Part shown: piece after piece, positions 5,381-61,612 of the stretch | Layout: each line of letters begins with the position of its first letter | How positions within the stretch are numbered: the first letter of the stretch is position 1 | DNA from: a virus | Lineage: Duplodnaviria; Heunggongvirae; Uroviricota; Caudoviricetes | Direction: 5' to 3' (one strand) | DNA length: 64,000 bases | Virus record (IMG/VR): IMGVR_UViG_3300048625_000166 | The notes under the pieces: generated by a model | What the model was told of the DNA's origin: nothing | Seen by the model: only the letters and a program-made list of their open reading frames with translations | Database searches by the model: none | Translations under genes and position numbers: made by a program

Positions 5381-6105
5381 TTCTTAGTATAAACGAAGTA
5401 CAATCTATCGTTGGCATCTTTCTTGAAGGTGTCTAGCGTAAGATTGTACTTTTCAGCAAACTCATTCACGACTTCAAAACTCCAAGGGAAGATATCAACG
5501 TAGGGACCTGTCTTATGTGAGATGCCTGGATTAGCACGTAGATAAAACTTGCCACCCTTCTTTAAGAGATTGACACAATGCTCAAATCGTGCTTCAATCT
5601 CATCCTTGCTATTAAAGTTAATTGATCCAAGAGCCAGAATTACATCATGTGATTCTGGTTTTACTTTATACTCAAGAATATCAACTTCATAGTCGGCTTG
5701 ATTGTTATATGGGTCGATACCAATTAAGTTTTGAATGCGGCCCTTGAATGGGTGATAGCCACAGCCAACATCAAGTACCTTCTCTGGGTTTAGTTTGTTA
5801 ACTTCATCAGCAAGCTCCCACCCTGTATGCTCATAGTCACCTGTGCGTGGCTTCCAAATCTCTCCAAAGAAGCGCAGGATATATCGTTCGCTCAAATCAT
5901 CGACGATATCTTTCAATGTACCTACGTATTCGCATGGCAAGCTCAATTCGGCCTCTACAGCGTCTTTGAATTTGCGATAACGTGCAGGTGTCCATGGTAA
6001 GTCTTGCACAACGGTGTTTTCGTCAATGGAAATCTTTGCATACTTTGGTAAATTAAACGCAAGTTTCAAATTTTCGCTAACTAGTTTAAAAATTTTAGTG
6101 TTCAT
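5377..6105 (-). CDS. SAM-dependent methyltransferase
   Basis: Motif I VLDVGCGYHPFKG; start moved to internal ATG (MNTKIF...) because the track start is TTG; transcribed divergently from the Bug-like gene. Confidence 0.65.
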   Translation of the reverse strand: MNTKIFKLVSENLKLAFNLPKYAKISIDENTVVQDLPWTPARYRKFKDAVEAELSLPCEYVGTLKDIVDDLSERYILRFFGEIWKPRTGDYEHTGWELADEVNKLNPEKVLDVGCGYHPFKGRIQNLIGIDPYNNQADYEVDILEYKVKPESHDVILALGSINFNSKDEIEARFEHCVNLLKKGGKFYLRANPGISHKTGPYVDIFPWSFEVVNEFAEKYNLTLDTFKKDANDRLYFVYTKN

Positions 6106-6143
6106 AGTAATTTTTTCTAAAAAATATAAATTTCTTGGAAATT

Positions 6144-6151
6144 GTATAAAT
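6144..6151 (+). promoter_or_regulatory. T4-type late promoter TATAAATA (+)
   Basis: Exact TATAAATA 33 nt upstream of ATG 6185. Confidence 0.45.
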
Positions 6152-6163
6152 ATTCTTGTCGTC

Positions 6164-6171
6164 ATATTTAT
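6164..6171 (-). promoter_or_regulatory. T4-type late promoter TATAAATA (-)
   Basis: Forward TATTTATA is TATAAATA on the minus strand, about 58 nt upstream of the MTase ATG at 6105. Confidence 0.4.
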
Positions 6172-6184
6172 ATTAGGAGGAACG

Positions 6185-7165
6185 ATGAAAAAACTTTTAG
6201 CAACACTCACACTAGTTATATTACCTTTGTTCGCATTCGCATGGGAACCATCTAAGCCGGTGACTGTTATTGTGGGTAACACACCTGGAGCAGGCAACGA
6301 AATCGCATTTAGGAAACTAGCAGAGATTGTGCAGAAACAAAACCCAAAGTTTGTTTATGTCGTACAAAACATTCCAGGTGCTGATTCTGTGGTAGCAAAT
6401 AATAAGGTACTAGATGCTCCGACTGACGGCTATACAATCAATTTGCCAAGTCATATGAGTTCATACGTGACTAATGATATTTGGGAAAAGAAAGTTAAAA
6501 AGTATCAATGGGATAGTTTCATCGACGTACTTACAATGGGTAAGAGTCCTCTGGTATTGGTCGCTAGTACAAAAAGTAATGTTAACACGCCAATCGACTT
6601 CATTAGATATCTGCATACTTCTACAAAGCCGATTAATATCGCAGTAGGTGGTGGAGCACACAGAACAGCATATGAGTATTTGATGGAATCTGCACATGGT
6701 GACAAGAATCTAATCACCCACGTGAAGTTCAATGGTCCGATGCCAGCAGTGTCGAGCGTAGCACAATATGATGGTAAGACGGGTACAGAGTTCGGTATCA
6801 TACCAATTGCAGTTGCTCGTTCGTTGATTGATGCAGGTAAAGTTAAACCTATCGGATTCACTGGCACAAGACACATGCCGCAATACCCAGATGTTCCGTT
6901 ATTGAACACAGTAGCACCTGGGATTAACGTGTATGCCGCATGGTCAATTCAACTGCCACCTAACACTAACAAAGAGATTGTAGATTGGTATCAAAAAGCA
7001 TTTAGTACCGCAGTACGTAGTAAAGAATATGCAGAATGGTGCAAATTAAATGTAGTGTTCTATTCAGAAGACGAATTGACTCCGGTTGGTCTAAAGAAAC
7101 ACATGCAAGAATTACGCACAACGTTCTTACCTGTACTAAGTAAGATAGACTTATCTAAGGAATAA
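6185..7165 (+). CDS. Bug/TctC-family periplasmic solute-binding protein (tripartite tricarboxylate transporter receptor-like)
   Basis: Signal peptide MKKLLATLTLVILPLFAFA; PSKP...IVGNTPGAGNEIAFRKLA...NIPGADSVVANNKVLDAPTDGYT...GKSPLVLVAS aligns with BugD/TctC hallmarks; real ATG with AGGAGG RBS. Confidence 0.65.
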   Translation: MKKLLATLTLVILPLFAFAWEPSKPVTVIVGNTPGAGNEIAFRKLAEIVQKQNPKFVYVVQNIPGADSVVANNKVLDAPTDGYTINLPSHMSSYVTNDIWEKKVKKYQWDSFIDVLTMGKSPLVLVASTKSNVNTPIDFIRYLHTSTKPINIAVGGGAHRTAYEYLMESAHGDKNLITHVKFNGPMPAVSSVAQYDGKTGTEFGIIPIAVARSLIDAGKVKPIGFTGTRHMPQYPDVPLLNTVAPGINVYAAWSIQLPPNTNKEIVDWYQKAFSTAVRSKEYAEWCKLNVVFYSEDELTPVGLKKHMQELRTTFLPVLSKIDLSKE

Positions 7166-8423: not shown

Positions 8424-9112
8424 TTAGTAACTGGGAAACAACAAAAGCAAAAAGCAAATATCACTTTGATAATTTTAAGAATGATCCAACCATGGACAAA
8501 GTTGAAGTATTAGGGCGAATTACAGGCGACTGGTCGCATGAAGTACAGGATATTATTGCTAACAGCAAACCTGCAACTTGGGAAACACGTGGATACAAAG
8601 GCGAAGGTGTTATGCCACCACGTGAAGATTTGATTGCAGAAGAATACGACTTAGAGAAAACTGGTTACGGAAAAGACCACCAGATAACACACTTAAACTG
8701 GAATGTTCCAGACAAGTTAAAAAAGATTACTGAAATGTTTGGTCTAGATGACTGCATGGAACGTATTCACGTGCAGATGCCAGGCGAAGTTTGGAATCTT
8801 CATATCGACAAACTAAACAAATGGTGCCCAGAAGAACCATGGAAAGTAATGCGTGTTATGATTCACTTGACTGATTGGGAACAAGGTCACTTCTGGTCGT
8901 ATGGCAATCACGTTCATACGCAATGGCATGCAGGTGATGTTACTACATTTGATTGGCAAAACTTGCCTCATTCTACTGCTAATGCAGGACATAATCCACG
9001 TGTTACGTTTCAGTTAACTGGTGTTGTAACACCCAAAACGCTTGATTTTCTTGCTAGGCTAAAACGGTTTAACACGATACAATTAGAGTACAAAAATGAG
9101 TCTTGGTTCTAA
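8420..9112 (+). CDS. hypothetical protein, possible cupin / Fe(II)-2OG oxygenase-like
   Basis: HxD (NLHID) followed about 45 aa later by a His cluster (HVHTQWHAGD); ATGA coupled. Confidence 0.3.
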   Translation: MISNWETTKAKSKYHFDNFKNDPTMDKVEVLGRITGDWSHEVQDIIANSKPATWETRGYKGEGVMPPREDLIAEEYDLEKTGYGKDHQITHLNWNVPDKLKKITEMFGLDDCMERIHVQMPGEVWNLHIDKLNKWCPEEPWKVMRVMIHLTDWEQGHFWSYGNHVHTQWHAGDVTTFDWQNLPHSTANAGHNPRVTFQLTGVVTPKTLDFLARLKRFNTIQLEYKNESWF

Positions 9113-9539
9113 ACGTATATTAATCATGGGTCTTCCTGGTTCAGGTAAGACTACCCTAGCGGACGCACTGGAAGAACGGTTCAATTTACGTAACAAAAAG
9201 GTTATTAGGTTGAATGCTGATAAGATACGTGAAGAATACGATGACTGGGATTTTACTACTGAGGGTAGATTGCGTCAAAGTAAGCGTATGTGTGAATTAG
9301 CTAGTAGAATCGAATGTGACTATGTTATAGCTGATTTTGTGTGTCCACTTGTGGAAATGCGTAATAATTTTGCTCCAGACCATCTTATATGGATGGACAC
9401 CATCAGATCCAGTGAATATGAAGACACTAATCAAATGTTTGTTCGACCAGAGAAGTGCACCTTCAGATTGATAGAAAAAGATGCTAAAAAATGGAGTGAG
9501 TACCTGGCGATAAATATAATAAAGCTAGATAGCTTGTAA
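9096..9539 (+). CDS. adenylylsulfate (APS) kinase-like P-loop kinase
   Basis: ILIMGLPGSGKTTLADAL Walker A; LNADKIRE...DFTTEGRLRQSKRM parallels CysC LDGDNVRH...GFSDADRKENIRRV. Confidence 0.5.
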   Translation: MSLGSKRILIMGLPGSGKTTLADALEERFNLRNKKVIRLNADKIREEYDDWDFTTEGRLRQSKRMCELASRIECDYVIADFVCPLVEMRNNFAPDHLIWMDTIRSSEYEDTNQMFVRPEKCTFRLIEKDAKKWSEYLAINIIKLDSL

Positions 9540-10332: not shown

Positions 10333-10599
10333 ATGTCAGATTATAACCGCTCATTCAATGGCGATGCCAAAATTAAATTAACTCAATTGGTCAACGAAGG
10401 TATGACAGTCTTGCACGAGATTGACACCCTTCAAGGCGGATTGAACGATACGATCAAGGCAGTCGCAGAAGAATTGGAAATCAAACCAGGCACTCTCAAG
10501 AAAGCAATCAAGATTGCACACAAGGCAAGCCTGGGTCAAACAAATAAAGACCACGACGAATTGAACACTATTTTGGAAACTGTAGGTAAGACACTTTGA
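10333..10599 (+). CDS. hypothetical protein
   Basis: 88 aa from internal ATG with AAGGAG RBS. Confidence 0.5.
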   Translation: MSDYNRSFNGDAKIKLTQLVNEGMTVLHEIDTLQGGLNDTIKAVAEELEIKPGTLKKAIKIAHKASLGQTNKDHDELNTILETVGKTL

Positions 10600-13304
10600 G
10601 CTACGTTGATGCCATTCATAGCAGGGATGAGGATCGCATCTACGTGGTAGAGCGTCAGTCAGATGGCCGACGCACCTACAATGAATTCCCTGCTAACTAC
10701 GTTCTATACTACGACGATCCTAAAGGAAAGCAACGTAGCATCTTTAACACACCTGTATCTCGATTCAGTACCCGCAAGCGTAAAGAGTTTGAAACTGAAA
10801 AGAGAATTCACTCTAACAAGCAATTGTACGAGAGTGATGTTAACGTTGTGTTCCGTTGCCTAGCCGATAATTATTTAGGTGTTGATGCTCCAAAACTTCA
10901 CACTTGCTTTTTCGACATTGAAGTAGACTTTGATCCTATCAAAGGGTTTAGTCCTACTAGTGATCCATTCAACCCTGTGACAGCTATCAGTTGTTATCTA
11001 GACTGGATGGACACTTGTTTCACGTTGGTTATTGCTCCAAAGCATATGACCAAAGAAACAGCAACTGAAATCATTGGTGAATTTGAGAATACAATCTTGT
11101 TTGACAACGAGAAGGACATGTTCGATGTGTTCTTTCAGTTAATCGAAGACGCCGACGTTCTAACAGGCTGGAACTCAGAAGGCTATGATATTCCATACAT
11201 GGTCAATCGTGTTACACGTGTTATGTCTAAAGATGATACACGTAAATTCTGTTTGCTTGGACAACTTCCTAAGCCAAGAGAGTATGAACGTTTCGGTAAA
11301 GTCGAATTGACGTATGACTTAGTTGGTCGCATTCACCTAGACTATTTGCAACTCTACAAAAAGTATAACTATGAATCTCGTCATAGCTATAAGCTCGATG
11401 CCATCGGTGAGATGGAAGTCGGCGAGAACAAAACCCAATACGAGGGCACTCTTGATCAGTTATATAACAAAGACTTTAAAAAGTTTATTGAATATAACAG
11501 ACAAGATACGATGTTGTTGGTTAAGATCCACAACAAATTGAAGTTCCTTGATCTAGCCAATGCGCTGGCTCATGAGAACACTGTATTGTTACCTACTGTA
11601 ATGGGCTCCGTTGCCATGATTGAAATGGCAATTTTAAACGAAGCTCATGAAAGAGGTTTAGTTGTTCCAGATAAAAAACGAAAGGTAGAAAATGCAGAAG
11701 ACATTCAATCAGCGGCAGGTGCCTATGTTGCTACTCCCAAAAGGGGCCTCCACGAATGGGTTGGTGCAGTCGATATCAACTCACTCTACCCGTCAACGAT
11801 CCGCGCTCTTAACATGGCACCAGAGACCATCGTTGCACAAGTCAGACAAACACTTACCGATCAATACATGAGAGAACGCGGTGCCAAACTGGCCCGTGAA
11901 AAGAAGTATTACAAAGATGGTGACGATGACGTTACAGGCGCAATCTTGTGGGAAGGATTGTTTGGTGCTCTAGAGTACACAGCAATCATGAACCAAGAAC
12001 GTGGTACTATCTTAACTGTAGACTACGAAGATGGTCGCAGTGTAGAAATGAGTGCCGCCGAGATTTGGAAGATGGTCTTTGATAGCCATAAGCCATGGAT
12101 GTTAAGTGCAAACGGTACAATTTTTACGTATGAGAAAGAGGGTGTAATTCCTGGTCTACTTACACGTTGGTATACTGAACGTAAATCAATTCAGAAACAG
12201 GCAAAAGAAGCGTATGGTACTGATATGTATGAATACTATGACAAACGCCAGCTTGTTCGTAAGATTTTGCTTAACTCTGCATACGGCGCACTGTTGAATG
12301 AACATTGTCGTTTCTATGATAAGCGCATTGGTCAATCAGTTACTCTATCTGGTCGTCAGATTGTTAAGCACATGATGAGTACAATCAATGAAACAGTTGA
12401 GGGTAAGTATACTCATGAAGGTGAAGCTATCGTTTATGGCGATACTGACTCATGTTACTTTAGTGCATATGCAACCTTAAAACCACAGATTGATGCGGGT
12501 GACTTAGAATGGAACAAAGATATTTGTATTGGTCTCTATGACGGCATTGCTGATCAAGCTAACAATACTTTCCCTTCGTTCTTAGAGAAAGCGTTCCATG
12601 CTCCTCGCAAGAATGGTGAGATCATCAAAGCTGGTCGTGAATTGATTGGTGATCGTAGTATCTTTATCACTAAGAAGCGTTATGCTATCAACATCTTTGA
12701 CAAAGAAGGCAAGCGTAAAGACAAAGACGGAGCATTGGGTGATATCAAAGCCATGGGTCTAGACTTGAAACGTGCAGATACTCCAAAGTATGTGCAAGAA
12801 TTCTTGATGGATGTACTTGAAATGGTACTACAACGAGGCAAGGGTAGTGAAGAAGTCATTGAACGAGTGCGAGAATTTAAACGAGTTATGGTATCTCAAG
12901 ATAGTTGGACAAAGGGTTCACCTAAATCCGTTAACAACTTGACCAAGCATACACAAGCGTTTGAAAAGACTGGTACTTGTAAAGTGGGTCACGCACGTGC
13001 CGCTATTAACTGGAATTATTTGCGACGAGTCCATGGAGATAACTACTCTATGCAAATTGTAGACGGCATGAAGATTGTTGTTTGCAAACTCAAGCCAAAT
13101 GCATTGGGTTTTAACTCAATTGCATATCCAGTTGACGAACTCAGACTTCCAGAATGGTTTAAAGAATTGCCATTCGATGATGACGAGATGGAAAAGACAC
13201 TGGTCGACGAAAAGATTGATAACTTGTTAGGTGTTCTGAATTGGGACATTAAGAGTAATATCGACGTTAAATCGACATTCGCCGAATTGTTCTCATTCGG
13301 TTAA
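10596..13304 (+). CDS. 43: family B DNA polymerase (T4 gp43-like)
   Basis: FDNEKDM...TGWN.EG.D.PY..NRV exo motifs; SLYPS.IR; KILLNSAYGAL; YGDTDS; KKRYA; only possible start is TTG 10596 (AGGTAAG SD, stop TAA in frame just upstream). Confidence 0.95.
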   Translation: MSYVDAIHSRDEDRIYVVERQSDGRRTYNEFPANYVLYYDDPKGKQRSIFNTPVSRFSTRKRKEFETEKRIHSNKQLYESDVNVVFRCLADNYLGVDAPKLHTCFFDIEVDFDPIKGFSPTSDPFNPVTAISCYLDWMDTCFTLVIAPKHMTKETATEIIGEFENTILFDNEKDMFDVFFQLIEDADVLTGWNSEGYDIPYMVNRVTRVMSKDDTRKFCLLGQLPKPREYERFGKVELTYDLVGRIHLDYLQLYKKYNYESRHSYKLDAIGEMEVGENKTQYEGTLDQLYNKDFKKFIEYNRQDTMLLVKIHNKLKFLDLANALAHENTVLLPTVMGSVAMIEMAILNEAHERGLVVPDKKRKVENAEDIQSAAGAYVATPKRGLHEWVGAVDINSLYPSTIRALNMAPETIVAQVRQTLTDQYMRERGAKLAREKKYYKDGDDDVTGAILWEGLFGALEYTAIMNQERGTILTVDYEDGRSVEMSAAEIWKMVFDSHKPWMLSANGTIFTYEKEGVIPGLLTRWYTERKSIQKQAKEAYGTDMYEYYDKRQLVRKILLNSAYGALLNEHCRFYDKRIGQSVTLSGRQIVKHMMSTINETVEGKYTHEGEAIVYGDTDSCYFSAYATLKPQIDAGDLEWNKDICIGLYDGIADQANNTFPSFLEKAFHAPRKNGEIIKAGRELIGDRSIFITKKRYAINIFDKEGKRKDKDGALGDIKAMGLDLKRADTPKYVQEFLMDVLEMVLQRGKGSEEVIERVREFKRVMVSQDSWTKGSPKSVNNLTKHTQAFEKTGTCKVGHARAAINWNYLRRVHGDNYSMQIVDGMKIVVCKLKPNALGFNSIAYPVDELRLPEWFKELPFDDDEMEKTLVDEKIDNLLGVLNWDIKSNIDVKSTFAELFSFG

Positions 13305-14481: not shown

Positions 14482-14491
14482 CAAAGAATTC

Positions 14492-14544
14492 CAGAGAGAT
14501 TGAAATCTCTCTGAGAATATCAGATAATAATATCGTTATCTGAT
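14492..14544 (+). other. two tandem perfect 9-bp hairpins (CAGAGAGAT-tgaa-ATCTCTCTG and ATCAGATAA-N8-TTATCTGAT), no U-tract
   Basis: Read directly; lie between gene ends 14481 and 14595. Confidence 0.5.
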
Positions 14545-14594
14545 TAACATAAACTTTATTAACTACAACCCGCTGTTTAAAAGGAAATATTAAA

Positions 14595-14804
14595 ATGGCA
14601 AAATATCAAGTTCAACCCAATGCAAAAGTTCGTCAGATTTTCGATGACCTCGAAAAGTATCTAACTTTCTGTCAAGATTTTGGCTACAAGTTCGACGAAG
14701 CTGATTTGTACAATCATCGAAGCTATGTCTTCCGTCAGTACAATAAATTTGCAACTGGTAAGGATGCGAAAGATCAATGGGCGGAGCTAATCGCGCGTTC
14801 ATGA
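14595..14804 (+). CDS. hypothetical protein
   Basis: 69 aa, AAGGAAA RBS. Confidence 0.5.
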   Translation: MAKYQVQPNAKVRQIFDDLEKYLTFCQDFGYKFDEADLYNHRSYVFRQYNKFATGKDAKDQWAELIARS

Positions 14805-15562
14805 AAGTAGTTCTAGTCACTGGTGGGTTCGACCCAATTCATAGTGGGCACATTGAATATTTCAAAGCCGCTAAACAACTCGGAGATAAATTAATTGTCG
14901 GGTTGAACAGTGACGCATGGTTGACCCGTAAAAAGGGTCAACCTTTTATGCCTTACTATGAACGAATGATGGTAGTTGGCAACCTATCTATGGTTGACGA
15001 GACTATCCAATACGACGATAGCGATGATTCAAGTATCAATGCTATCAAGCGTGTTAAACAAGATTATCCTGATGCTGAAATTATCTTTGCTAACGGCGGA
15101 GATAGAACTTCATACAACATTCCAGAAATGTCAGTAACTGATGTAGAGTTTGTGTTCGGCGTCGGTGGAGAGAACAAAGCAAATAGTAGTAGCTGGATTC
15201 TACGGGAGTGGAAACAACCAAAGACTTCACGTACTTGGGGTTACTATCGTATTCTACATGATGTACCTGGTTGCAAGGTGAAAGAACTTACTGTAGAGCC
15301 TGGTCAAAGTTTGAGTATGCAACGCCATTTCAAACGTCATGAATTCTGGCATGTTACAGAAGGCAACTGCATCTTAGATATGCAACTGCCAAGTGGTTAT
15401 GCATTGCCTCCAATGGATTTATCGCAACATAGCCAGATACAAATTCCACAAGGTGATTGGCATCGACTAAGTAATCCCTATAGTGTCCCATGCAGAATCG
15501 TAGAGATTCAATATGGTGATATGTGTGTGGAAGAAGATATTGAACGTAAGAACAATTCATAA
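14801..15562 (+). CDS. nucleotidyltransferase (HxGH cytidylyl/adenylyltransferase, RfaE-II/NMNAT-like) fused to C-terminal cupin domain
   Basis: VVLVTGGFDPIHSGHIEYF...GLNSD; C-terminal cupin-like VEPGQSLSMQRHFKRHEFWHVTEGNC; start moved to ATGA-coupled ATG. Confidence 0.6.
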   Translation: MKVVLVTGGFDPIHSGHIEYFKAAKQLGDKLIVGLNSDAWLTRKKGQPFMPYYERMMVVGNLSMVDETIQYDDSDDSSINAIKRVKQDYPDAEIIFANGGDRTSYNIPEMSVTDVEFVFGVGGENKANSSSWILREWKQPKTSRTWGYYRILHDVPGCKVKELTVEPGQSLSMQRHFKRHEFWHVTEGNCILDMQLPSGYALPPMDLSQHSQIQIPQGDWHRLSNPYSVPCRIVEIQYGDMCVEEDIERKNNS

Positions 15563-15575
15563 CAGAGAAGTAATT

Positions 15576-15866
15576 ATGGCAACTAAGAAGATAAAACAAG
15601 ATAGCATTACTTTAGAAATGCCTGGAACAATTGGCGGTGCAAAAGTTGTACTACCAAAAGAAAAGAAAACTAAACTAAAGAATGTAGACAGTGGTGGTTG
15701 GCCAAAGATTAATCAAGGCACACACTTGACTGTAAAGACTTTTGAAGATGGTCGTACTGAACTAATTTGGGATGACGCACAACTCTTAAAAGAAGTCCAA
15801 GAAGCAATCGCATCAGTAACAGTTACTGAGGCAAAACCAAAGCGTAAATCAAAGGAGAAAAAATGA
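15576..15866 (+). CDS. hypothetical protein
   Basis: Internal ATG of track ORF 15513; Lys-rich C-terminus. Confidence 0.4.
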   Translation: MATKKIKQDSITLEMPGTIGGAKVVLPKEKKTKLKNVDSGGWPKINQGTHLTVKTFEDGRTELIWDDAQLLKEVQEAIASVTVTEAKPKRKSKEKK

Positions 15867-16057
15867 GCGCACATAACGAAATTAACACACATCTAGAAGC
15901 ATACTTGGTAGAACATGAAAAGTTCGAGAAGGGCAACTCAGCCGCTGGTACTCGTGCCCGTAAAGCATTGGGTGAATTGGCTAAAGCAATCAAGGCTCGT
16001 CGTAATGAAATTACTGAGACCAAGAATGCACGTGCCGCAGAAAAAGCAAAGGCTTAA
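15863..16057 (+). CDS. hypothetical small basic protein
   Basis: 64 aa, AAAGGAG RBS. Confidence 0.45.
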   Translation: MSAHNEINTHLEAYLVEHEKFEKGNSAAGTRARKALGELAKAIKARRNEITETKNARAAEKAKA

Positions 16058-16059
16058 TC

Positions 16060-16353
16060 ATGGCATTGACTCCAGCAAATGACCGCATCTTGGTCAAACC
16101 GCAGGAAGCAAAGACTAGAACAGAATCGGGATTTTATATTCCTGATTCTGCTCAAGAAAAACTGCCACGTGGTACTGTATTCAAGGTAGGCAAAGGTCGT
16201 AGACTTGATGATGGTAGTTTTGCTTCACCTGAAGTCAAAGAGGGTGATGTAGTTATCTACACTCAAACAGGCCCTCAGAAGATTACAGTTGGTAATCAAG
16301 ATTTCATCGTCATGAAAGAAGAAGATATTCTTTGCATCGTTGATGAAGAATAA
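16060..16353 (+). CDS. groES: GroES-like co-chaperonin (T4 gp31 functional analogue)
   Basis: DRILVKPQEAKTRTESGFYIPDSAQEKLPRGTVFKVGKGRRLDDG...GDVVIY aligns along the GroES length. Confidence 0.75.
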   Translation: MALTPANDRILVKPQEAKTRTESGFYIPDSAQEKLPRGTVFKVGKGRRLDDGSFASPEVKEGDVVIYTQTGPQKITVGNQDFIVMKEEDILCIVDEE

Positions 16354-16359
16354 TTTATC

Positions 16360-16545
16360 ATGAAAGATATTCCAATTTGGCGTAAGGCCGTTTATACATT
16401 CTTTGCACCATTGTTCATTCTAGTATGGGTGATTTTTCATCCTAAACTTTTCTGGGCAGAAGCAAAGAGAACTTGGAACGAACCATCTGCATGTAATGGC
16501 AATTGTAATCAAGGACGTAACTGTGACTGCAAAAACAAATCTTGA
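16360..16545 (+). CDS. small membrane protein with Cys-rich tail
   Basis: TM helix then CNGNCNQGRNCDC. Confidence 0.4.
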   Translation: MKDIPIWRKAVYTFFAPLFILVWVIFHPKLFWAEAKRTWNEPSACNGNCNQGRNCDCKNKS

Positions 16546-16549
16546 TTGG

Positions 16550-16822
16550 ATGAAAGAGGCGGCCGACAGGATCATGAATGATCCAGTGAAGCTCAAAGAG
16601 TTTATGCGTAGTGTAATAGGCCCTGAACAAAGAATTATCGAGGGACAAGAGAAAGAACATCTATTCACGATTTTCAATCTACTTGATCCTCTCGAAGAAT
16701 CCAACAACCAACGTTCTTGGACAACTGTATATGAACATGCAGGAAAAACGTACCACTACACTGTAGGTGATGGGTGGGATGAATTAGCAGAGATATTACC
16801 AGATGATTTTCAACAGGATTAA
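16550..16822 (+). CDS. hypothetical protein
   Basis: Internal ATG of track ORF 16496. Confidence 0.4.
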   Translation: MKEAADRIMNDPVKLKEFMRSVIGPEQRIIEGQEKEHLFTIFNLLDPLEESNNQRSWTTVYEHAGKTYHYTVGDGWDELAEILPDDFQQD

Positions 16823-17267
16823 AGAATTAAAACAACAAGGTCTACGTATCGGTATCACCTTTTCGCAATTTGACTTGCTACATGCAGGTCATGTTGCTAT
16901 GCTCAGTGAAGCAAAAAACCATTGTGACTATCTTATCTGTGGACTGCAAAACAACGCTAGTTGGGATCGTCCTGAAAAGAATAGTCCTATTCAATCAATC
17001 GTCGAAAGACAAATCAGTTTAAGTGCAGTACGTTTTGTTGACGAGATTGTAGTCTACAACACTGAAAAAGACCTAGAAGATATCTTACTAACACTTCCAG
17101 TTGACGTTCGTATCTTGGGTGTAGAGTACATCGATAAAGAATTCACAGGTAAACAAATTTGCCTACAGCGTAATATTGAACTAGTATTCAATGGACGTGA
17201 CCACAGTTTCAGTAGTTCAAGTCTACGTAAAAGAGTAGCAGAAGCACAAAATAAGGTACAACAATGA
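16803..17267 (+). CDS. cytidylyltransferase-like nucleotidyltransferase (HxGH)
   Basis: GITFSQFDLLHAGHVAMLSEAK; typical glycerol-3-P cytidylyltransferase/RfaE-II-like core. Confidence 0.6.
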   Translation: MIFNRIKELKQQGLRIGITFSQFDLLHAGHVAMLSEAKNHCDYLICGLQNNASWDRPEKNSPIQSIVERQISLSAVRFVDEIVVYNTEKDLEDILLTLPVDVRILGVEYIDKEFTGKQICLQRNIELVFNGRDHSFSSSSLRKRVAEAQNKVQQ

Positions 17268-17566
17268 GTAATTTTTACGATTCATTCGCTAGTAGATACC
17301 GTGTCAAACACGTGCAAGTAAGTCGTGACCGTAGATATGAAACTATCAACTATGGTTATAATCAAACTGCTAGTTACTATGCTGACCGTGAAGAAATTAT
17401 TGAAATGGAACTTACACGTAGTGGATTCGAAGATTTGGTCAAGGTAGACAAGGATCATGACAAGTTATGGCAAGACCAGCGCGATGAAGCATGGTTGCGT
17501 AAACAATACCCTGCACTCAAAGATGCATACGACAAATATCAAATGCTATTGGCATTATACAAATAA
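17264..17566 (+). CDS. hypothetical protein
   Basis: 100 aa, ATGA coupled. Confidence 0.5.
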   Translation: MSNFYDSFASRYRVKHVQVSRDRRYETINYGYNQTASYYADREEIIEMELTRSGFEDLVKVDKDHDKLWQDQRDEAWLRKQYPALKDAYDKYQMLLALYK

Positions 17567-17577
17567 TAGGAAGTAAC

Positions 17578-18756
17578 ATGACAAAAACAGTAGCAGTTAT
17601 CGGCGCAGGCATAGCTGGTCTTACAACTGCGTATTACCTTGTTAGAAAAGGTTATCGAGTTACCGTGTATGAGCAAGAGCGATACGCGGCCATGCGTACT
17701 AGCTTTGCCAACGGTGGACAAATGTCTGTTAGCAATAGCGAAGTATGGACAACCTGGAGCAACGTCAAAAAAGGCGTTAAGTGGCTATTCACCAAAGATG
17801 CACCTTTGCTCATTCGTCCATGCTTTGACTGGAAGCAATGGAAATGGATCGCTAAATTTCTGTACTACACTGCCAAAGGTGACTACAAAGAGAATACAGC
17901 ATGGACTGTTCGAGCTGGTCTAGAAGCCAGAGAACTGTACAAAGAAATCATGTTTGAAGAAGGCATTTCGTTTGATTACTTGGGAACAGGTATCGTACAC
18001 TTCTACAAAGACAAACAGTACTGGGACAATGCTCAAACTGTTAAACAGATTTACAACGACAATGGTTGTGAGTGGGATTTACTAACACCGATGCAAGTGA
18101 AAGCTCTTGATCCTGCACTAGAAAATATCGACAACATGATTGGTGGCACATTCACTCCAAGCGATAGTACAGGCGACATTCACAAATTCTGTATGAATCT
18201 AGCGTTAGTTCTAGAGAACAAATACGGCGTTGAATTCAAGTATGAATCAAACATTACTCGCAACTGGGGCATTGAAGCATTAGCTGATGTGTTCGATGCA
18301 GTAGTCATTGCCGCTGGTGTTGGTAGCACTGAATTAGCAGGGCAAATTGGTGACACGCTAGACGTATATCCAGTCAAGGGCTACTCTATCACAATCAACA
18401 ATGTTGATCCTAAGTATTTGCCTAAAGTAAGTCTGTTAGACGATCAAGCCAAGATCGTGACAAGTACATTGGGCAATCGATTCCGTGTTGCTGGTACTGC
18501 TGAGTTGACTGGAGAGAACTACGATATCACTAGAGATAGAGTTGAGCCATTGTTAGAATGGGTTCATACGAACTTTCCTAATATCAATACAAGCGACTAC
18601 ACCCAGTGGGCATGCTTACGTCCTATGACACCTAACATGATGCCTATCACCAAACAGAGTGACAGGAACAAGAAAGTGTTCTACAATACAGGACATGGTC
18701 ATCTTGGTTGGACTCTGAGTCCATACACCTCTAAGACTGTAGCAGATTTAATCTAA
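17578..18756 (+). CDS. FAD-dependent oxidoreductase (DAO/DadA-like)
   Basis: VAVIGAGIAGLTTAYYL...VTVYEQ GxGxxG dinucleotide fold. Confidence 0.7.
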   Translation: MTKTVAVIGAGIAGLTTAYYLVRKGYRVTVYEQERYAAMRTSFANGGQMSVSNSEVWTTWSNVKKGVKWLFTKDAPLLIRPCFDWKQWKWIAKFLYYTAKGDYKENTAWTVRAGLEARELYKEIMFEEGISFDYLGTGIVHFYKDKQYWDNAQTVKQIYNDNGCEWDLLTPMQVKALDPALENIDNMIGGTFTPSDSTGDIHKFCMNLALVLENKYGVEFKYESNITRNWGIEALADVFDAVVIAAGVGSTELAGQIGDTLDVYPVKGYSITINNVDPKYLPKVSLLDDQAKIVTSTLGNRFRVAGTAELTGENYDITRDRVEPLLEWVHTNFPNINTSDYTQWACLRPMTPNMMPITKQSDRNKKVFYNTGHGHLGWTLSPYTSKTVADLI

Positions 18757-19391: not shown

Positions 19392-19552
19392 TGGAACTAC
19401 GTTATTTGCGTACACGAGAAGTAGACGGCACTGTGCATCAGGTGTTACAGTATAGAACACAGATTCAAGTGCCTGACTATAGCACAGAAAAGCATATTCC
19501 TAAGGTAGTATGGACTGACTGGAAAGATGTGCCAGTAGTCGAGAGTAATTAA
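19391..19552 (+). CDS. hypothetical small protein (53 aa, not on ORF track)
   Basis: TAATG-coupled ATG at 19391; ends 4 nt inside the convergent SOD gene. Confidence 0.3.
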   Translation: MELRYLRTREVDGTVHQVLQYRTQIQVPDYSTEKHIPKVVWTDWKDVPVVESN

Positions 19553-20103
19553 AGGCTTTTGCCCCAGCGAGTATTAATAACGTTCCAGTTAATAATCTTC
19601 CACTGTTCTTTCAAGTATTTTTTCTTGTCAGAGCCATAATCTAATAGCCATGCATGTTCCCACCAGTCTACTAATAGTAGAATGTCACTGCGAACTTCAT
19701 GGTTTTTTATGGTCTTGATTTTGCCATCAGTGGATAGATAGATCCAGCCGCTACCTTCTATCTTCATAGCTTCTTCTTGGAATTGCTCCTTGAAGTCATC
19801 CCATGAGTTATAATGCTTGTTGATAAAGCCAAGCATGGGACCATTTGGCTTGTTAACGTTTCGTACTTCACGAAACTGAGGGAATAACATGTTATGCAAG
19901 AATGCACCTGCATAGTTGAAATCCCTATCACCTTCTTTGTTGTTGTAACGTTCAGCATAACCATGCGCTAACTTGCCATAGTGTAAGTCCAATGTCTCTT
20001 TAGACAGCACAGGACTTACATCTTTTGGCTCGAAGTTTAGTTGAATGATTTCTATATCTTGAGGCTTGCTTTTAGCCTCAAGTAGCTGAATCAAGTCACG
20101 CAT
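19549..20103 (-). CDS. sod: Fe/Mn superoxide dismutase
   Basis: DLHYGKLAHGY...DWWEHAWLLDY matches Fe/Mn-SOD metal-binding motifs. Confidence 0.85.
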   Translation of the reverse strand: MRDLIQLLEAKSKPQDIEIIQLNFEPKDVSPVLSKETLDLHYGKLAHGYAERYNNKEGDRDFNYAGAFLHNMLFPQFREVRNVNKPNGPMLGFINKHYNSWDDFKEQFQEEAMKIEGSGWIYLSTDGKIKTIKNHEVRSDILLLVDWWEHAWLLDYGSDKKKYLKEQWKIINWNVINTRWGKSL

Positions 20104-26132: not shown

Positions 26133-27029
26133 ATGTTTTTAATCTCTATCGCCCTGTTGGTAGCAATCGTTGCTTCCATCGCACTGTATTTCGTTTCCCT
26201 CGTAAATCATGATCGAAACTCAAATCAACATGTAACGACATATCCCTTGCGTAAGTTGGCAATGTTGCCTTACTTGCTAGTTGTAGCTGTCATTGCGTTT
26301 GAATCATTCACTATTGTGCCACCTGGTCACGTTGGTGTGCAAGTCACTCTAGGTAAAACAAACTTAGATAACGTATTGCCTGAAGGTGTTACCTTTGTTA
26401 ACCCTATTTCTAGTGTTCGTAATGTGAACGTACAGTTGCAACGTGCAGAACTTGAGAATCAGAACGCAGGCACTACAGATATGCAACAAGTTCACACTGA
26501 TATTGTGGTTAACTATCGACTAACTGCTAATATGGTCCCGACTATCTATAAAGAGTTTGGTTTGAATGTAGCAGACAAAGTTCTTGGTCCAGCTATCAGC
26601 GAAGCATTTAAGACTGTAACTGGTCAGTACACAAGCCAAGAATTGATTTCAAAGCGTGAAGAAGTTTCCGCTAAGATTCTTGAACGTTTGGCACATAAAG
26701 TTGCACCATTCGATATCACAGTCAGTAACATCAGTTTGGTGAACTTTGGCTTCTCTAAAATCTATCAAGATTCTATTGATGCTAAGATGGTTGCCACGCA
26801 AACTAAGTTGAAAGCTGAACAGGATTTGCAACGCATTGAAATTGAAGCTAAGTCACGTATCGCACAAGCTGAAGGTGAAGCTAAAGCTATCTCGATTCAA
26901 GCACAAGCTATTCAAAGTAACGGTGGCGCTCAGTACGTACAGTTGCAATGGATTGAAAAGTGGAATGGTGCTCTCCCAAGTACTGTAGTAGGTGCAGACA
27001 GTAAAACACTGATGAACATTGGCAAGTAA
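26133..27029 (+). CDS. SPFH/band-7 (prohibitin/HflK-like) membrane protein
   Basis: N-terminal TM then PGHVGVQVTLGK...; coiled-coil C-terminus. Confidence 0.7.
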   Translation: MFLISIALLVAIVASIALYFVSLVNHDRNSNQHVTTYPLRKLAMLPYLLVVAVIAFESFTIVPPGHVGVQVTLGKTNLDNVLPEGVTFVNPISSVRNVNVQLQRAELENQNAGTTDMQQVHTDIVVNYRLTANMVPTIYKEFGLNVADKVLGPAISEAFKTVTGQYTSQELISKREEVSAKILERLAHKVAPFDITVSNISLVNFGFSKIYQDSIDAKMVATQTKLKAEQDLQRIEIEAKSRIAQAEGEAKAISIQAQAIQSNGGAQYVQLQWIEKWNGALPSTVVGADSKTLMNIGK

Positions 27030-48110: not shown

Positions 48111-49313
48111 ATGAGTACTGAAAACAAACTGAACCATTGCTCCTTTTGTGGCAATCATAAAGATGTAGTTAAAAAATTGATCGTTGGCGATGACGTTGCT
48201 ATCTGTAGCGACTGTATTGACCTGTGTACTCAATTAATTGTTGATGACGGCACGGTAGAGGACAATTCTATCAAGACCAATGATCAATATGATCCTGCCT
48301 TAATTAAGACTTACTTGGATCAACACGTTATTGGCCAAGATAGTGCTAAAATGGTACTATCGGTGGCTATCGCAAATCACTATAAGCGAATCACTCATCC
48401 ACCTAAAGATTTAGATATCTCGAAGGGCAACGTTCTTATCGTAGGTCCCACTGGCAGTGGTAAAACATTGCTTGCGAAAACCGTAGCGAAATACCTTAAC
48501 GTTCCATTTGTAGTGGCTGATGCAACTAGCTTAACCGAAGCTGGCTATGTAGGTGATGACGTTGAATCAATGATCAGTATGCTAGTTGCTAATGCAAACG
48601 GCGATACTAAACTAGCAGAGCGCGGAATCGTGTTTGTTGATGAAATCGACAAGATTGCACGTAAGGGTGAGTCTACCAGCTTAACCAGGGACGTTTCAGG
48701 CGAAGGTGTACAACAAGCACTATTGAAACTAGTCGAAGGTACTGTGTGTCGTGTTCCTGCACAGGGTGGTCGTAAGCACCCAGGTGGAGATATGCTAGAA
48801 GTCAACACCAAGAACATCCTGTTCATTGCTGGTGGCGCATTCGTTGGCTTGAAAGACGTTATCGAGCGTAGAACTAACGGCGGTGGCATTGGATTCGGAG
48901 CAACTGTAAAGAAATCCCAACAAGAAAGCAATTTAGGTGAAGTCACTCCTGATGACTTGACTAAGTTCGGCATGATTCCTGAGTTTATCGGTCGATTCAC
49001 TACTACTGTCGCTATTGAGACACTAACAAAAGACGAACTTAAGCGTGTTCTTCTTGAGGTCAAAAACAACTATATCGCCCAGTATCAGTATCTGTTCTCC
49101 ATTGACGGCATTGAGTTGGTATTGGAGGATTCAGCACTGGATCAGATCGTAGATAATTGCGTCAAACTCAAGACTGGCGCACGTGGCTTGCACACTGAGA
49201 TTGAACGTGCCCTAATGCCACACATGTTTAACACTGGTAAATATCGTCAAAACAAGATTAAAAAGATAAATATTAATCAGGAGTTAATTTTAAACCCAAA
49301 ACCAATTGTATGA
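48111..49313 (+). CDS. clpX: ClpX ATP-dependent protease ATPase subunit
   Basis: C4 zinc-binding N-domain CSFCGN...CSDCIDLC; Walker A GPTGSGKT; IGF ClpP-docking loop GIGFGA. Confidence 0.9.
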   Translation: MSTENKLNHCSFCGNHKDVVKKLIVGDDVAICSDCIDLCTQLIVDDGTVEDNSIKTNDQYDPALIKTYLDQHVIGQDSAKMVLSVAIANHYKRITHPPKDLDISKGNVLIVGPTGSGKTLLAKTVAKYLNVPFVVADATSLTEAGYVGDDVESMISMLVANANGDTKLAERGIVFVDEIDKIARKGESTSLTRDVSGEGVQQALLKLVEGTVCRVPAQGGRKHPGGDMLEVNTKNILFIAGGAFVGLKDVIERRTNGGGIGFGATVKKSQQESNLGEVTPDDLTKFGMIPEFIGRFTTTVAIETLTKDELKRVLLEVKNNYIAQYQYLFSIDGIELVLEDSALDQIVDNCVKLKTGARGLHTEIERALMPHMFNTGKYRQNKIKKININQELILNPKPIV

Positions 49314-52363: not shown

Positions 52364-52954
52364 ATGAGTCTAGTCCCTATCGTCATCGAACAAACATCTA
52401 AGGGTGAACGTAGTTATGACATTTACAGCCGTCTACTGAAAGATCGTGTTATTTTGCTTGAAGGTGAAGTCCATGATCAAATGGCAAACCTTATCGTTGC
52501 TCAACTACTCTTTTTAGAAAGCGAAGACCCTGGCAAAGATATCAACATGTATATCAACTCTCCAGGTGGCAGTGTCACCGCTGGCATGGCAATCTATGAC
52601 ACCATGCAATTCATTAAGCCAGATATCCATACTATCGTGATGGGTCAAGCGTGTTCGATGGGTTCATTGCTAGCACAAGCTGGAAGCCCTGGCAAGCGTT
52701 TCATGTTGCCTAATGCTCGTCATATGATTCACCAACCATCCGGTGGTGCTCGTGGCATGCAATCGGATATCGAAATCTCCTACAAAGAAATCACTTACTT
52801 GAAAAAGCGTTTGACTGAAATCTACGTCAAACACAACTCCGCTGGTAAGACATACGAAGAATTCGAACGTGACATGGATCGTGATAAGTTCATGAGCGCA
52901 GACGAAGCATTAGCTTATGGTCTAATCGATCAAGTGTTGGAGAAACGTCCTTGA
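52364..52954 (+). CDS. clpP: ClpP ATP-dependent Clp protease proteolytic subunit
   Basis: AAGGAG RBS; catalytic triad context GQACSMGS (Ser), MIHQPSGG (His), [17 protein letters not shown] (Asp); high similarity to bacterial ClpP throughout. Confidence 0.9.
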
Positions 52955-60608: not shown

Positions 60609-60877
60609 AATACTTTACATTTAAACGTGAATCAAATGATTTTGATGATATACTAAAAGACACTATCATCAAGAAACTGTTCTCTATGAAACTTCAATGG
60701 AGAAATCACTTGATGGTAGGTATCAGTGAAGCTGGCAACGATGGCACATTTAGCTACATTACACTGAAATACGGCGATGATATGGTAACTGATATTGTCC
60801 CAGATCGTTCACCTGTTATATACGTAGATTACTTGCCAAAGGGCAACGAAAACTACAAGGGCTCAGTATCTAAGTGA
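60605..60877 (+). CDS. hypothetical protein
   Basis: Second ATG of track ORF 60596, ATGA coupled. Confidence 0.4.
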   Translation: MKYFTFKRESNDFDDILKDTIIKKLFSMKLQWRNHLMVGISEAGNDGTFSYITLKYGDDMVTDIVPDRSPVIYVDYLPKGNENYKGSVSK

Positions 60878-61612
60878 TATTAGGCGGGCTTCTGGAATAC
60901 GAGTATGAGTATTCTTGCTACCTAATAGAACGACTGTTCTAATTCCATTCTTGGTTGGTAACATCATCACGATGCATCCACCACTGCGATTAATAAATCC
61001 TGTCTTACTTACAACGAATGATTGTAATCCAACGATGGGATTTGTGTTGTGAAATACTAGTTTAGATTTCTTAACAGGAACAACAATCAACGACTTGTTA
61101 CTAGCTTGTACGATTGTTGAATAAGAGCTTGCCGCTTGTACCATTTTAATCAAATCTTCTGCCGTACTGACATTCATCACAGATAATCCAGTTGGCTCGG
61201 CAAATTTCGTGTTAGGCATCTCTAGTGCGTATGCTTTTGAATTCATAGCATGTATACATGCAGAGAACCCGCCAGGATAATACTCACAGAGCAACCTAGC
61301 CGCTTTGTTGTCAGACTTAACTATCGCCAAATCAATCAACGTTTGTCGTGTTTGTTCTTGGTTGTAGAGCTTTGTAGGAATAGTCTCGTCAAGCGGCTGG
61401 TTTGCATCCATGACAATCATTACCGTCATTAATTTAGTGATGCTGGCGATAGAACGGACGGCTGTAGTATTGATGCCGTCTATTATTTTTCCTGATTCGT
61501 CAGCCACCAACCATGACTTAGCGGTAATCACTGGTTCATGTTGAACTTTGGCATTGCCCACCAGCGAAGTGAACAAAGCCGTGATCAACACGGTCTTTTT
61601 CAAAAAGTTCAT
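60863..61612 (-). CDS. secreted D-alanyl-D-alanine carboxypeptidase/endopeptidase (PBP5/PBP7-like serine peptidase)
   Basis: Signal peptide; SITK (SxxK) and KSDN (SxN) active-site motifs. Confidence 0.7.
   Translation of the reverse strand: MNFLKKTVLITALFTSLVGNAKVQHEPVITAKSWLVADESGKIIDGINTTAVRSIASITKLMTVMIVMDANQPLDETIPTKLYNQEQTRQTLIDLAIVKSDNKAARLLCEYYPGGFSACIHAMNSKAYALEMPNTKFAEPTGLSVMNVSTAEDLIKMVQAASSYSTIVQASNKSLIVVPVKKSKLVFHNTNPIVGLQSFVVSKTGFINRSGGCIVMMLPTKNGIRTVVLLGSKNTHTRIPEARLISLRY

Follow-up and report, generated by a model that had tools for sequence, protein, structure and literature searches.

A 64-kb stretch of DNA from a tailed virus (IMG/VR record IMGVR_UViG_3300048625_000166; Caudoviricetes), analysed as a whole and referred to here as the window, carries at positions 14595–18756 two nucleotidyltransferases of the HIGH-motif class, one of them fused to a cupin, and an FAD-dependent oxidoreductase. 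The question raised by this locus is whether these enzymes serve one purpose and, if so, which. A first-pass annotation, made from the letters alone, had combined them in a nucleotide-activated sugar or cofactor pathway, with DNA hypermodification, NAD salvage or glycan modification as candidate roles. The explanation that we favour, and to which as a whole we give about an even chance of being right, is that the region holds auxiliary metabolic genes within a replication-gene block and not a single pathway: the fusion protein would be a bifunctional enzyme supplying activated mannose, the stand-alone nucleotidyltransferase (NT2) would activate a second sugar and the oxidoreductase would act independently. 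The source is an uncultured jumbo phage related to T4. Its family-B DNA polymerase (10596–13304) shares 43–48% identity with the polymerases of Phosso, Atu_ph07 and RaK2, and no DNA-level match of the region to GenBank phages was found by megablast.

The fusion protein consists of a nucleotidyltransferase domain (residues ~1–137) followed by a cupin resembling type II phosphomannose isomerases (PMI; residues ~141–250). Residues 6–103 match PF01467, CTP_transf_like (E = 2.7e-14, 53.9 bits against a gathering score of 21), and residues 141–250 match PF01050, MannoseP_isomer, at profile positions 11–114 of 116 (E = 1.6e-19, 70.6 bits against a gathering score of 23.6); Cupin_2 is also matched (E = 2e-6). 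NT2 matches PF01467 over the full domain (38.3 bits, gathering score 21), and the oxidoreductase matches PF01266, DAO, at positions 2–353 of 353 (204.8 bits). All the profile searches that the first-pass annotation had proposed (CTP_transf_like, Cupin_2 and DAO) were thus positive, the family E-values for the three enzymes are far beyond chance, and its description of the three genes, with a GroES-like gene and small genes interspersed among them, was borne out (Table 1). The ATG at 14801 is the start shared with homologues of the fusion, most of which are 253 aa long.

The nucleotidyltransferase domain of the fusion has the motifs of the HIGH family, GGFDPIHSGH and a Ser-rich nucleotide-binding NSSSW. 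The cupin has the motif S-M-Q-R-H-F-K-R-H-E-F-W, in which S, Q, H, R, E and W do not vary among the 12 phage and cellular sequences aligned; the Ser-x-Gln-x-His residues and the type II Arg are those cited as the catalytic/zinc motif of mannose-phosphate isomerases (PMC9602691). From phages to Patescibacteria the invariant elements are S-x-Q-x-H-x-x-R-x-E-x-W, an upstream W-G pair, GGFDPxHxGH, FANGGDR and the SSS run, and the window protein has all of them. Three further elements (KTxRxWG, WHxxxN and ExQxGxxCxExDIxR) are invariant among the phage clades and invariant or nearly so in the family as a whole. Cellular homologues, at 33–54% identity, keep the W-G pair and the S-x-Q-x-H-x-x-R-x-E-x-W motif; almost all of them also have H, E, G and ExDIxR. 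In an AlphaFold2 model of the protein, with a predicted local distance difference test (pLDDT) score of 88, a cupin barrel comes after a Rossmann-like domain. CapF structures, which were the top matches of this model in Foldseek, were discarded as relatives; the root mean square deviation was ~17 Å and the two-domain layout is merely analogous.

What the nucleotidyltransferase domain acts on is less readily told. The best model is rfaE domain II (TIGR02199; E = 6.5e-21, 74.7 bits against an equivalog cut-off of 181.5), followed by TagD (TIGR01518; 49.9 bits, cut-off 165.4), and in the Protein Data Bank (PDB) the closest proteins by sequence are ethanolamine-phosphate cytidylyltransferase (ECT), TagD and HldC. 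Since the models for rfaE domain II, TagD and NMN adenylyltransferase (NMNAT) all score far below their cut-offs, sequence alone gives no substrate. The NAD+ salvage or reconstitution role, for which one HxGH enzyme would have to act as an NMN/NaMN adenylyltransferase, is nevertheless extremely unlikely. The fusion does match NMNAT models weakly (E = 1.5e-5 and 3.7e-4), as well as PHROG 3462 (3e-6), and related phages encode a kinase fused to an NadM-like domain with the motif GRWQPWHEGH. However, the scores for the NMNAT models TIGR00482 and PRK01153 are 25.1 and 20.1 bits, far below both those for rfaE domain II and TagD and their own cut-offs of 112–127, and NT2 does not match either model. 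The NadM-like domain was not found in the window by tblastn, no Nampt, Nudix or PRPP-related gene was seen among the ~50 open reading frames (ORFs) of the window that were scanned for protein families, and all contextual links point to sugar-nucleotide enzymes.

These links come from the relatives of the fusion. The same two-domain architecture is found in thousands of proteins of a large protein database, some of them on contigs of up to ~524 kb; IMG/VR holds 158 relatives and a scan of 185 579 species genomes returned 559. The family occurs in jumbo phages, SAR11, SAR86 and Patescibacteria. In one gammaproteobacterial metagenome-assembled genome (MAG; locus L189), Gmd, Fcl and the fusion stand directly side by side in the same orientation; Gmd scores 575 bits with TIGR01472 (cut-off 415) and Fcl 494.6 bits (cut-off 500). 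No ManC-sized ORF lies within 8 kb, so that the fusion takes the place occupied by manC in the classical gmd-fcl-(gmm)-manC cluster. In Saccharibacteria and Nomurabacteria, two Gmd genes, Fcl and a Gmm-like Nudix gene stand beside the fusion. L215 and three related loci have a split form, in which the PMI cupin is fused to a HAD-IIB domain, the superfamily of the eukaryotic-type phosphomannomutase, and is followed by a nucleotidyltransferase-only gene, with Gmd and Fcl nearby. Altogether, 11 cellular loci have a true Gmd (44–62% identity) and 7 have Fcl within 8 kb of the fusion. Phage contexts point the same way. Around 38 close phage relatives have a gene for a 395-aa protein resembling GT-B glycosyltransferases (GTs) that overlaps the stop codon of the fusion. 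In distant clades the fusion directly precedes a GT8 gene, 4–7 GT-like paralogues, an FkbM methyltransferase, a short-chain dehydrogenase/reductase (SDR), and GT25 and GT-D-like genes, and a HAD-IIB gene lies nearby in three phage loci (L045, L046 and L053).

Together, the cellular and phage contexts support a reading of the fusion as a PMI and mannose-1-phosphate nucleotidyltransferase feeding glycosyltransferases. The protein is accordingly predicted to make an NDP-mannose; we infer its substrates, nucleotide specificity and sugar acceptor from its domain identities, conserved residues, distribution and gene contexts. The cupin would isomerise fructose-6-phosphate to mannose-6-phosphate by type II PMI chemistry, and the HIGH-motif domain would convert mannose-1-phosphate to NDP-mannose, with GDP as the probable nucleotide, to judge from the Gmd and Fcl neighbours only. 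The intervening phosphomannomutase would still be required, supplied by the host or, in certain relatives, encoded by the HAD-IIB gene, and the product would be used by phage- or host-encoded glycosyltransferases. The enzyme would in this way work like the PMI-GMP (mannose-1-phosphate guanylyltransferase) enzymes of the ManC/AlgA type, albeit with a non-homologous transferase fold.

Several observations weigh against this assignment. We know of no HIGH-fold nucleotidyltransferase that uses GTP; adjacency to Gmd implies GDP indirectly, and the best models for the domain are those of a heptose-1-phosphate adenylyltransferase and a glycerol-3-phosphate cytidylyltransferase, both below cut-off. 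Foldseek searches of the model against PDB and BFVD gave generic cupins only, and no solved PMI close to the cupin half emerged from a profile search. In SAR11 the fusion gene always directly follows polA, with overlapping stop and start, and pntB and gyrA flank it in SAR86; these are core, non-glycan contexts. Finally, no glycosyltransferase, mutase or SDR was seen among the scanned ORFs of the window, so that the consumer of the sugar is not visible there.

The comparison with ManC/CpsB, AlgA, XanB and PslB (TIGR01479) shows both how close and how distant the fusion is. These proteins have the same C-terminal PF01050 cupin with the S-x-Q-x-H-x-x-R-x-E-x-W motif, they have an N-terminal sugar-phosphate nucleotidyltransferase, and in some bacteria the fusion agrees with them in its genomic position beside gmd and fcl. 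In contrast, the nucleotidyltransferase of the fusion is a HIGH-motif Rossmann-like domain of PF01467 and not a GT-A-like domain of PF00483, for which no match was found in the fusion, and its length is 253 aa instead of ~470 aa. TIGR01479 gives 64.1 bits against a cut-off of 373 and aligns to the C-terminal PMI part only (positions 358–462 of 467); the protein therefore falls outside the ManC-type equivalog. We see in this large family a variant, so far uncharacterised, of an enzyme type that is already known; our literature search turned up no paper on the fusion. If the prediction is true, GDP-mannose or another NDP-mannose can be made by a second, non-homologous class of pyrophosphorylase fused to the PMI domain of ManC, a version that abundant streamlined bacteria (SAR11, SAR86 and Patescibacteria) and many environmental jumbo phages would use; gaps in the annotation of glycan pathways of those organisms would be filled. 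Jumbo phages would then bring their own supply of activated sugar, which would point to glycosylation under phage control, be it of virions, of the host envelope or of DNA.

Homologues of the two halves are known separately from cyanophages, at 50–53% identity for the nucleotidyltransferase and 39% for the cupin. A stand-alone type II mannose-phosphate isomerase is an auxiliary gene of cyanophage S-SCSM1 (PMC9602691), and TagD/RfaE-II-like cytidylyltransferases are auxiliary genes of S-SSM7, P-TIM68 and S-SCSM2R (PMC12801897). In S-SSM7 the nucleotidyltransferase gene is found just downstream of the DNA polymerase gene, a placement resembling that in the window. The cyanophage genes were read as carbon-metabolism or cell-wall genes; in the window, in contrast, the two domains are fused and a second nucleotidyltransferase is present.

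Three further features of the family were noted. Adjacency to a DNA polymerase recurs: it is seen with polA in SAR11 (L243 7200–10777, L244, L245 and L168–L187 being among the loci of this observation, with L081 3325–6447), with gp43 in S-SSM7 (a nucleotidyltransferase-only homologue) and in the window, where the fusion lies 1.5 kb after polymerase and clamp genes. In one phage clade (L073 and L076, 10771–20252) genes for six paralogous radical-SAM proteins of 408–584 aa (PF04055, E = 2e-10) come after the fusion, together with a seventh gene, for a protein of 333 aa; GT-like and tail-fibre-like genes precede the fusion in this unusual arrangement. Two contigs labelled Legionellales and Neomarinimicrobiota (L169 and the 335-kb L170) have several clusters, including GT-like paralogues, in common with a 327-kb phage contig (L246), and are probably jumbo-phage contigs mis-binned into bacterial MAGs.

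NT2 also has the motifs of the HIGH family (FDLLHAGH and FSSSSLR). It is 30% identical to the nucleotidyltransferase domain of the fusion, and every cellular nucleotidyltransferase gene compared is closer to the latter than to NT2, which is a diverged paralogue of the HldC/TagD class. Its scores are again below the cut-offs, namely 69.0 bits for rfaE domain II (E = 3.6e-19; cut-off 181.5) and 49.7 bits for TagD (E = 3.6e-13; cut-off 165.4), and its PDB matches are ECT, TagD and HldC. In the close clade NT2 is always 3–6 kb downstream of the fusion. In two other phage clades (B and C) the gene order is DAO, RmlC-like, NT2 and UXS-like SDR; the RmlC-like gene, the product of which matches RmlC (E = 8e-17), runs over the start of NT2, so that the two are coupled in translation, and the SDR that follows matches human UXS1 (E = 4e-118). 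Because of these flanking genes NT2 is best read as a predicted sugar-1-phosphate nucleotidyltransferase. It would activate a second sugar-1-phosphate, the product of which would be processed by the RmlC-like epimerase and SDR enzymes in those clades.

The scores of both transferases could also be taken as signs of a heptose-nucleotide pathway. Here the cupin would be an analogue of GmhA (sedoheptulose-7-phosphate to D-glycero-D-manno-heptose-7-phosphate), a P-loop kinase would be HldA-like, and one or both transferases would be HldC-like and give ADP-heptose. The rfaE domain II model is indeed the best nucleotidyltransferase model for both proteins, PHROG 7878 carries the same name and HldC (5x9q) is among the PDB matches; GDP-heptose 3,5-epimerases are among the proteins that the RmlC-like neighbour of NT2 resembles, and the P-loop kinase is part of the conserved neighbourhood. 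HldC (RfaE domain II) and TagD share with both window domains the fold, the HxGH motif and the C-terminal SSS run, and HldC itself acts on a manno-configured sugar-1-phosphate, as is predicted for the fusion. We nevertheless consider this pathway improbable. The two scores are far from the equivalog cut-off, the cupin matches the PMI family specifically, and the neighbouring Gmd proteins pass the cut-off for GDP-mannose dehydratase, with the Fcl proteins reaching theirs or falling just short of it. Where a HAD protein is fused or adjacent, it is of the IIB, phosphomannomutase-like type and not of the GmhB type, and the kinase is APS-kinase-like, not ribokinase-like or a GHMP sugar kinase. Unlike HldC and TagD systems, the window enzymes come without an HldA kinase domain, GmhA or GmhB, and one copy is fused to a PMI cupin.

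The oxidoreductase has the N-terminal motif VIGAGIAG. It resembles DadA and glycine oxidase ThiO in its full-length DAO fold and in the GAGIAG dinucleotide-binding motif, and its nearest solved relatives are glycine oxidases. With the D-amino-acid dehydrogenase model PRK12409 it aligns over the full length and scores 465.2 bits, a little under the equivalog cut-off of 494. It differs from DadA in that identity to the nearest DadA-annotated match in a phage collection (Acinetobacter contigs filed as phage) is ~45%, whereas it belongs to a phage clade of its own with at least 152 viral contigs in IMG/VR (54–89% identity). We predict a dehydrogenase of the DadA type for D-amino acids, or of the glycine type, that would act independently of the sugar enzymes. 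The position of the gene varies: it is found between NrdA and NrdB, next to UvsE or before the RmlC-like–NT2 pair, and in 28 of 53 determinable loci it follows a QueD-like gene within 3.5 kb. The fusion is within 5 kb in only 2 of 50 loci, and NT2 within 3.5 kb in 21/55 determinable loci, in two gene orders (upstream in 14, downstream in 7). Given this variability and these counts, the DAO gene is treated as, and probably is, an independent auxiliary gene. A single pathway including the oxidoreductase, as put forward in the first-pass annotation, is therefore not upheld; the part of that proposal that stands is the activation of sugars by both transferases, on the strength of the Gmd/Fcl, HAD-IIB, GT and RmlC/UXS contexts.

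The count of 21/55, it must be said, exceeds what is expected of a purely independent gene, and a looser link between NT2 and DAO is for this reason a residual possibility. In its stronger form, NT2, DAO, the kinase, the RmlC-like epimerase and the SDR would make up one tailoring module for sugar nucleotides, in which the flavoenzyme oxidises an amino or hydroxy group, either on the activated sugar or on an attached amino acid. The proximity survives rearrangement, the block DAO–RmlC-like–NT2–UXS-like recurs, and both genes are kept in the lineage lacking Que genes (the window, L162 and L082). Yet in the other 34 of the 55 loci DAO has no NT2 nearby, for example between NrdA and NrdB; its D-amino-acid dehydrogenase score (465 bits) and its glycine oxidase relatives do not suggest a sugar oxidoreductase, and no overlap was seen at DAO gene junctions. 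We regard such a module as unlikely and retain the independent dehydrogenase.

Some further observations concern this gene. A count by which it seemed rare (2/80 loci) was rejected as an effect of flank length; the gene is in fact frequent, at other sites. A class II aldolase/MtnB-like gene (PF00596, E = 4.5e-28; L095 3556–4191) is within 5 kb of DAO in 14/50 loci, often between the QueD-like gene and DAO, where in some loci a ferredoxin-like gene (PHROG 3704) is also found. A Peptidase_S11 D-alanyl-D-alanine carboxypeptidase is encoded at 60863–61612 on the minus strand of the window (E = 1.2e-35); speculatively, it might free D-Ala from peptidoglycan, a candidate substrate for a DadA-like enzyme. 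DadA-like genes are widespread auxiliary genes in these phages, and the literature that we searched held no description of them in jumbo phages.

A role in DNA hypermodification had also been suggested for the locus. In a single pathway of this kind the transferases would activate a sugar for a modified base and the flavoenzyme would tailor it. Phage clusters for 7-deazaguanine DNA modification comprise FolE, QueD, QueE, QueC and DpdA (PMC6884629, PMC10516641). Most close relatives of the window, around 40, interleave genes of this type with those studied here, in the order: possibly TGT-like gene, 151-aa ORF, nucleotidyltransferase–cupin fusion, GT, FolE, NT2, (kinase–NMNAT-like), QueD-like, (DAO), QueE-like, GT and GalE-like SDR (for example L097 96–12603 and L015 9330–20101). 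Their FolE scores above its cut-off (328 bits, cut-off 202), DAO is often between the QueD-like gene and QueE, there are two GT-B-like genes and a GalE-like SDR, and a protein of 517–538 aa has a TGT-like GDSGGFQ motif. In addition, the genes of the window are in a DNA-replication block beside the polymerase. However, no FolE, QueD, QueE, DpdA-like, GT or SDR gene was found in the 64-kb window by tblastn with the proteins of the relatives, and these genes are equally missing from the 17 kb examined of the closest relative (L162; 91% identity, same gene order); both keep the fusion, NT2 and DAO. Within the DNA seen, the trio is therefore independent of the deazaguanine module. The scanned ORFs of the window include no hydroxymethylase or DNA glycosyltransferase family, and members of the fusion family are core genes in SAR11 and SAR86 and are found in polysaccharide loci of other bacteria. 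We know of no deazaguanine pathway using an enzyme of the cytidylyltransferase family, a PMI cupin or a DAO enzyme. The components of DNA hypermodification are not visible in the window, and we give this explanation of the trio only a small chance.

As for the relatives themselves, the assignment of the 517–538 aa protein as DpdA/TGT-like lacked Pfam, PHROG and PDB support and is not claimed; PHROGs gave no function for the GT-like, the DpdA-like and other neighbours, and no QueC was seen. Joint loss of the GTs with the deazaguanine module makes a glycosylated deazaguanine in the relatives conceivable, if speculative. In the fullest form of this idea, the fusion (as a hitherto unrecognised HIGH-fold mannose-1-phosphate guanylyltransferase that provides the sugar), the GT-B-like gene overlapping it, NT2, the GalE-like SDR, the second GT, FolE, the QueD-like and QueE-like enzymes and the TGT-like protein would build a glycosylated 7-deazaguanine in DNA, and the lineage of the window would have lost the steps of base synthesis and transfer and kept sugar activation for another use. 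The product might by analogy be a DNA counterpart of the mannosyl-queuosine of tRNA; we hold the scheme, analogy included, to be very improbable. A tetrahydrobiopterin (BH4)-type pterin pathway (FolE, PTPS and SDR) was rejected for the relatives, as their SDR is of the extended GalE/UXS type and not a short SDR of the sepiapterin-reductase type. Between NT2 and QueD, the relatives also carry an APS-kinase-like P-loop kinase fused or adjacent to the NadM/NMNAT-like domain mentioned above (NT3, the one NMNAT-like gene in this neighbourhood; L015 16302–17093 and L017 13811–14605), whereas the window kinase lies upstream of the polymerase gene and is without this domain.

Table 1. Genes of the region and the upstream kinase gene, with the evidence for each
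Feature	Position	Strand	Evidence or remark
APS-kinase-like P-loop kinase	9096..9539	+	PF01583, E = 1.9e-11; tblastn, 56–58% identity to the kinase half of relatives
Small conserved ORF (69 aa)	14595..14804	+	Stop overlaps start of the fusion (ATGA)
Nucleotidyltransferase–cupin fusion (253 aa)	14801..15562	+	Pfam, NCBIfam, AlphaFold2 model, invariant residues, context
Conserved small protein (96 aa)	15576..15866	+	tblastn matches in 25 loci; syntenic with Hc1 in relatives
Hc1 histone H1-like DNA-binding protein	15863..16057	+	PF07432, E = 1.4e-14; conserved in 34 loci
GroES co-chaperonin, interspersed	16060..16353	+	Cpn10, E = 3.6e-26; 3/80 loci only
Conserved ORF (108 aa)	16496..16822	+	End overlaps start of NT2; upstream of NT2 in relatives too
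NT2, stand-alone HIGH-type nucleotidyltransferase (154 aa)	16803..17267	+	PF01467, E = 1.8e-9
Conserved ORF (100 aa)	17264..17566	+	Start overlaps stop of NT2; kept in relatives
DadA-like FAD-dependent dehydrogenase, DAO family (392 aa)	17578..18756	+	PF01266, E = 3.5e-60

The remaining genes of the region are small. The overlapping junctions of the 69-aa ORF with the fusion and of NT2 with the ORFs on either side suggest translational coupling. The 69-aa ORF is present 203 bp upstream of the fusion in nearly all loci of the close clade. No Pfam or PHROG match was found for the proteins of 96, 108 and 100 aa. The Hc1 gene is interspersed and stands outside any sugar pathway. In the gap before the 69-aa ORF (14482–14594) we noted a hairpin (14491–14514), closely followed by what looks like another inverted repeat, and a promoter-like site (14500–14528); the gap may be a boundary between transcription units; promoter and terminator scans gave no excess over the shuffled expectation. 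Host-like genes abound in the window: besides Hc1 and GroES (15863–16353), it encodes Fe/Mn-SOD-like, TctC-like solute-binding, SPFH/Band 7, ClpX and ClpP proteins, the coordinates of these further genes being 19549–20103 (minus strand), 6014–7165, 26133–27029, 48111–49313 and 52364–52954.

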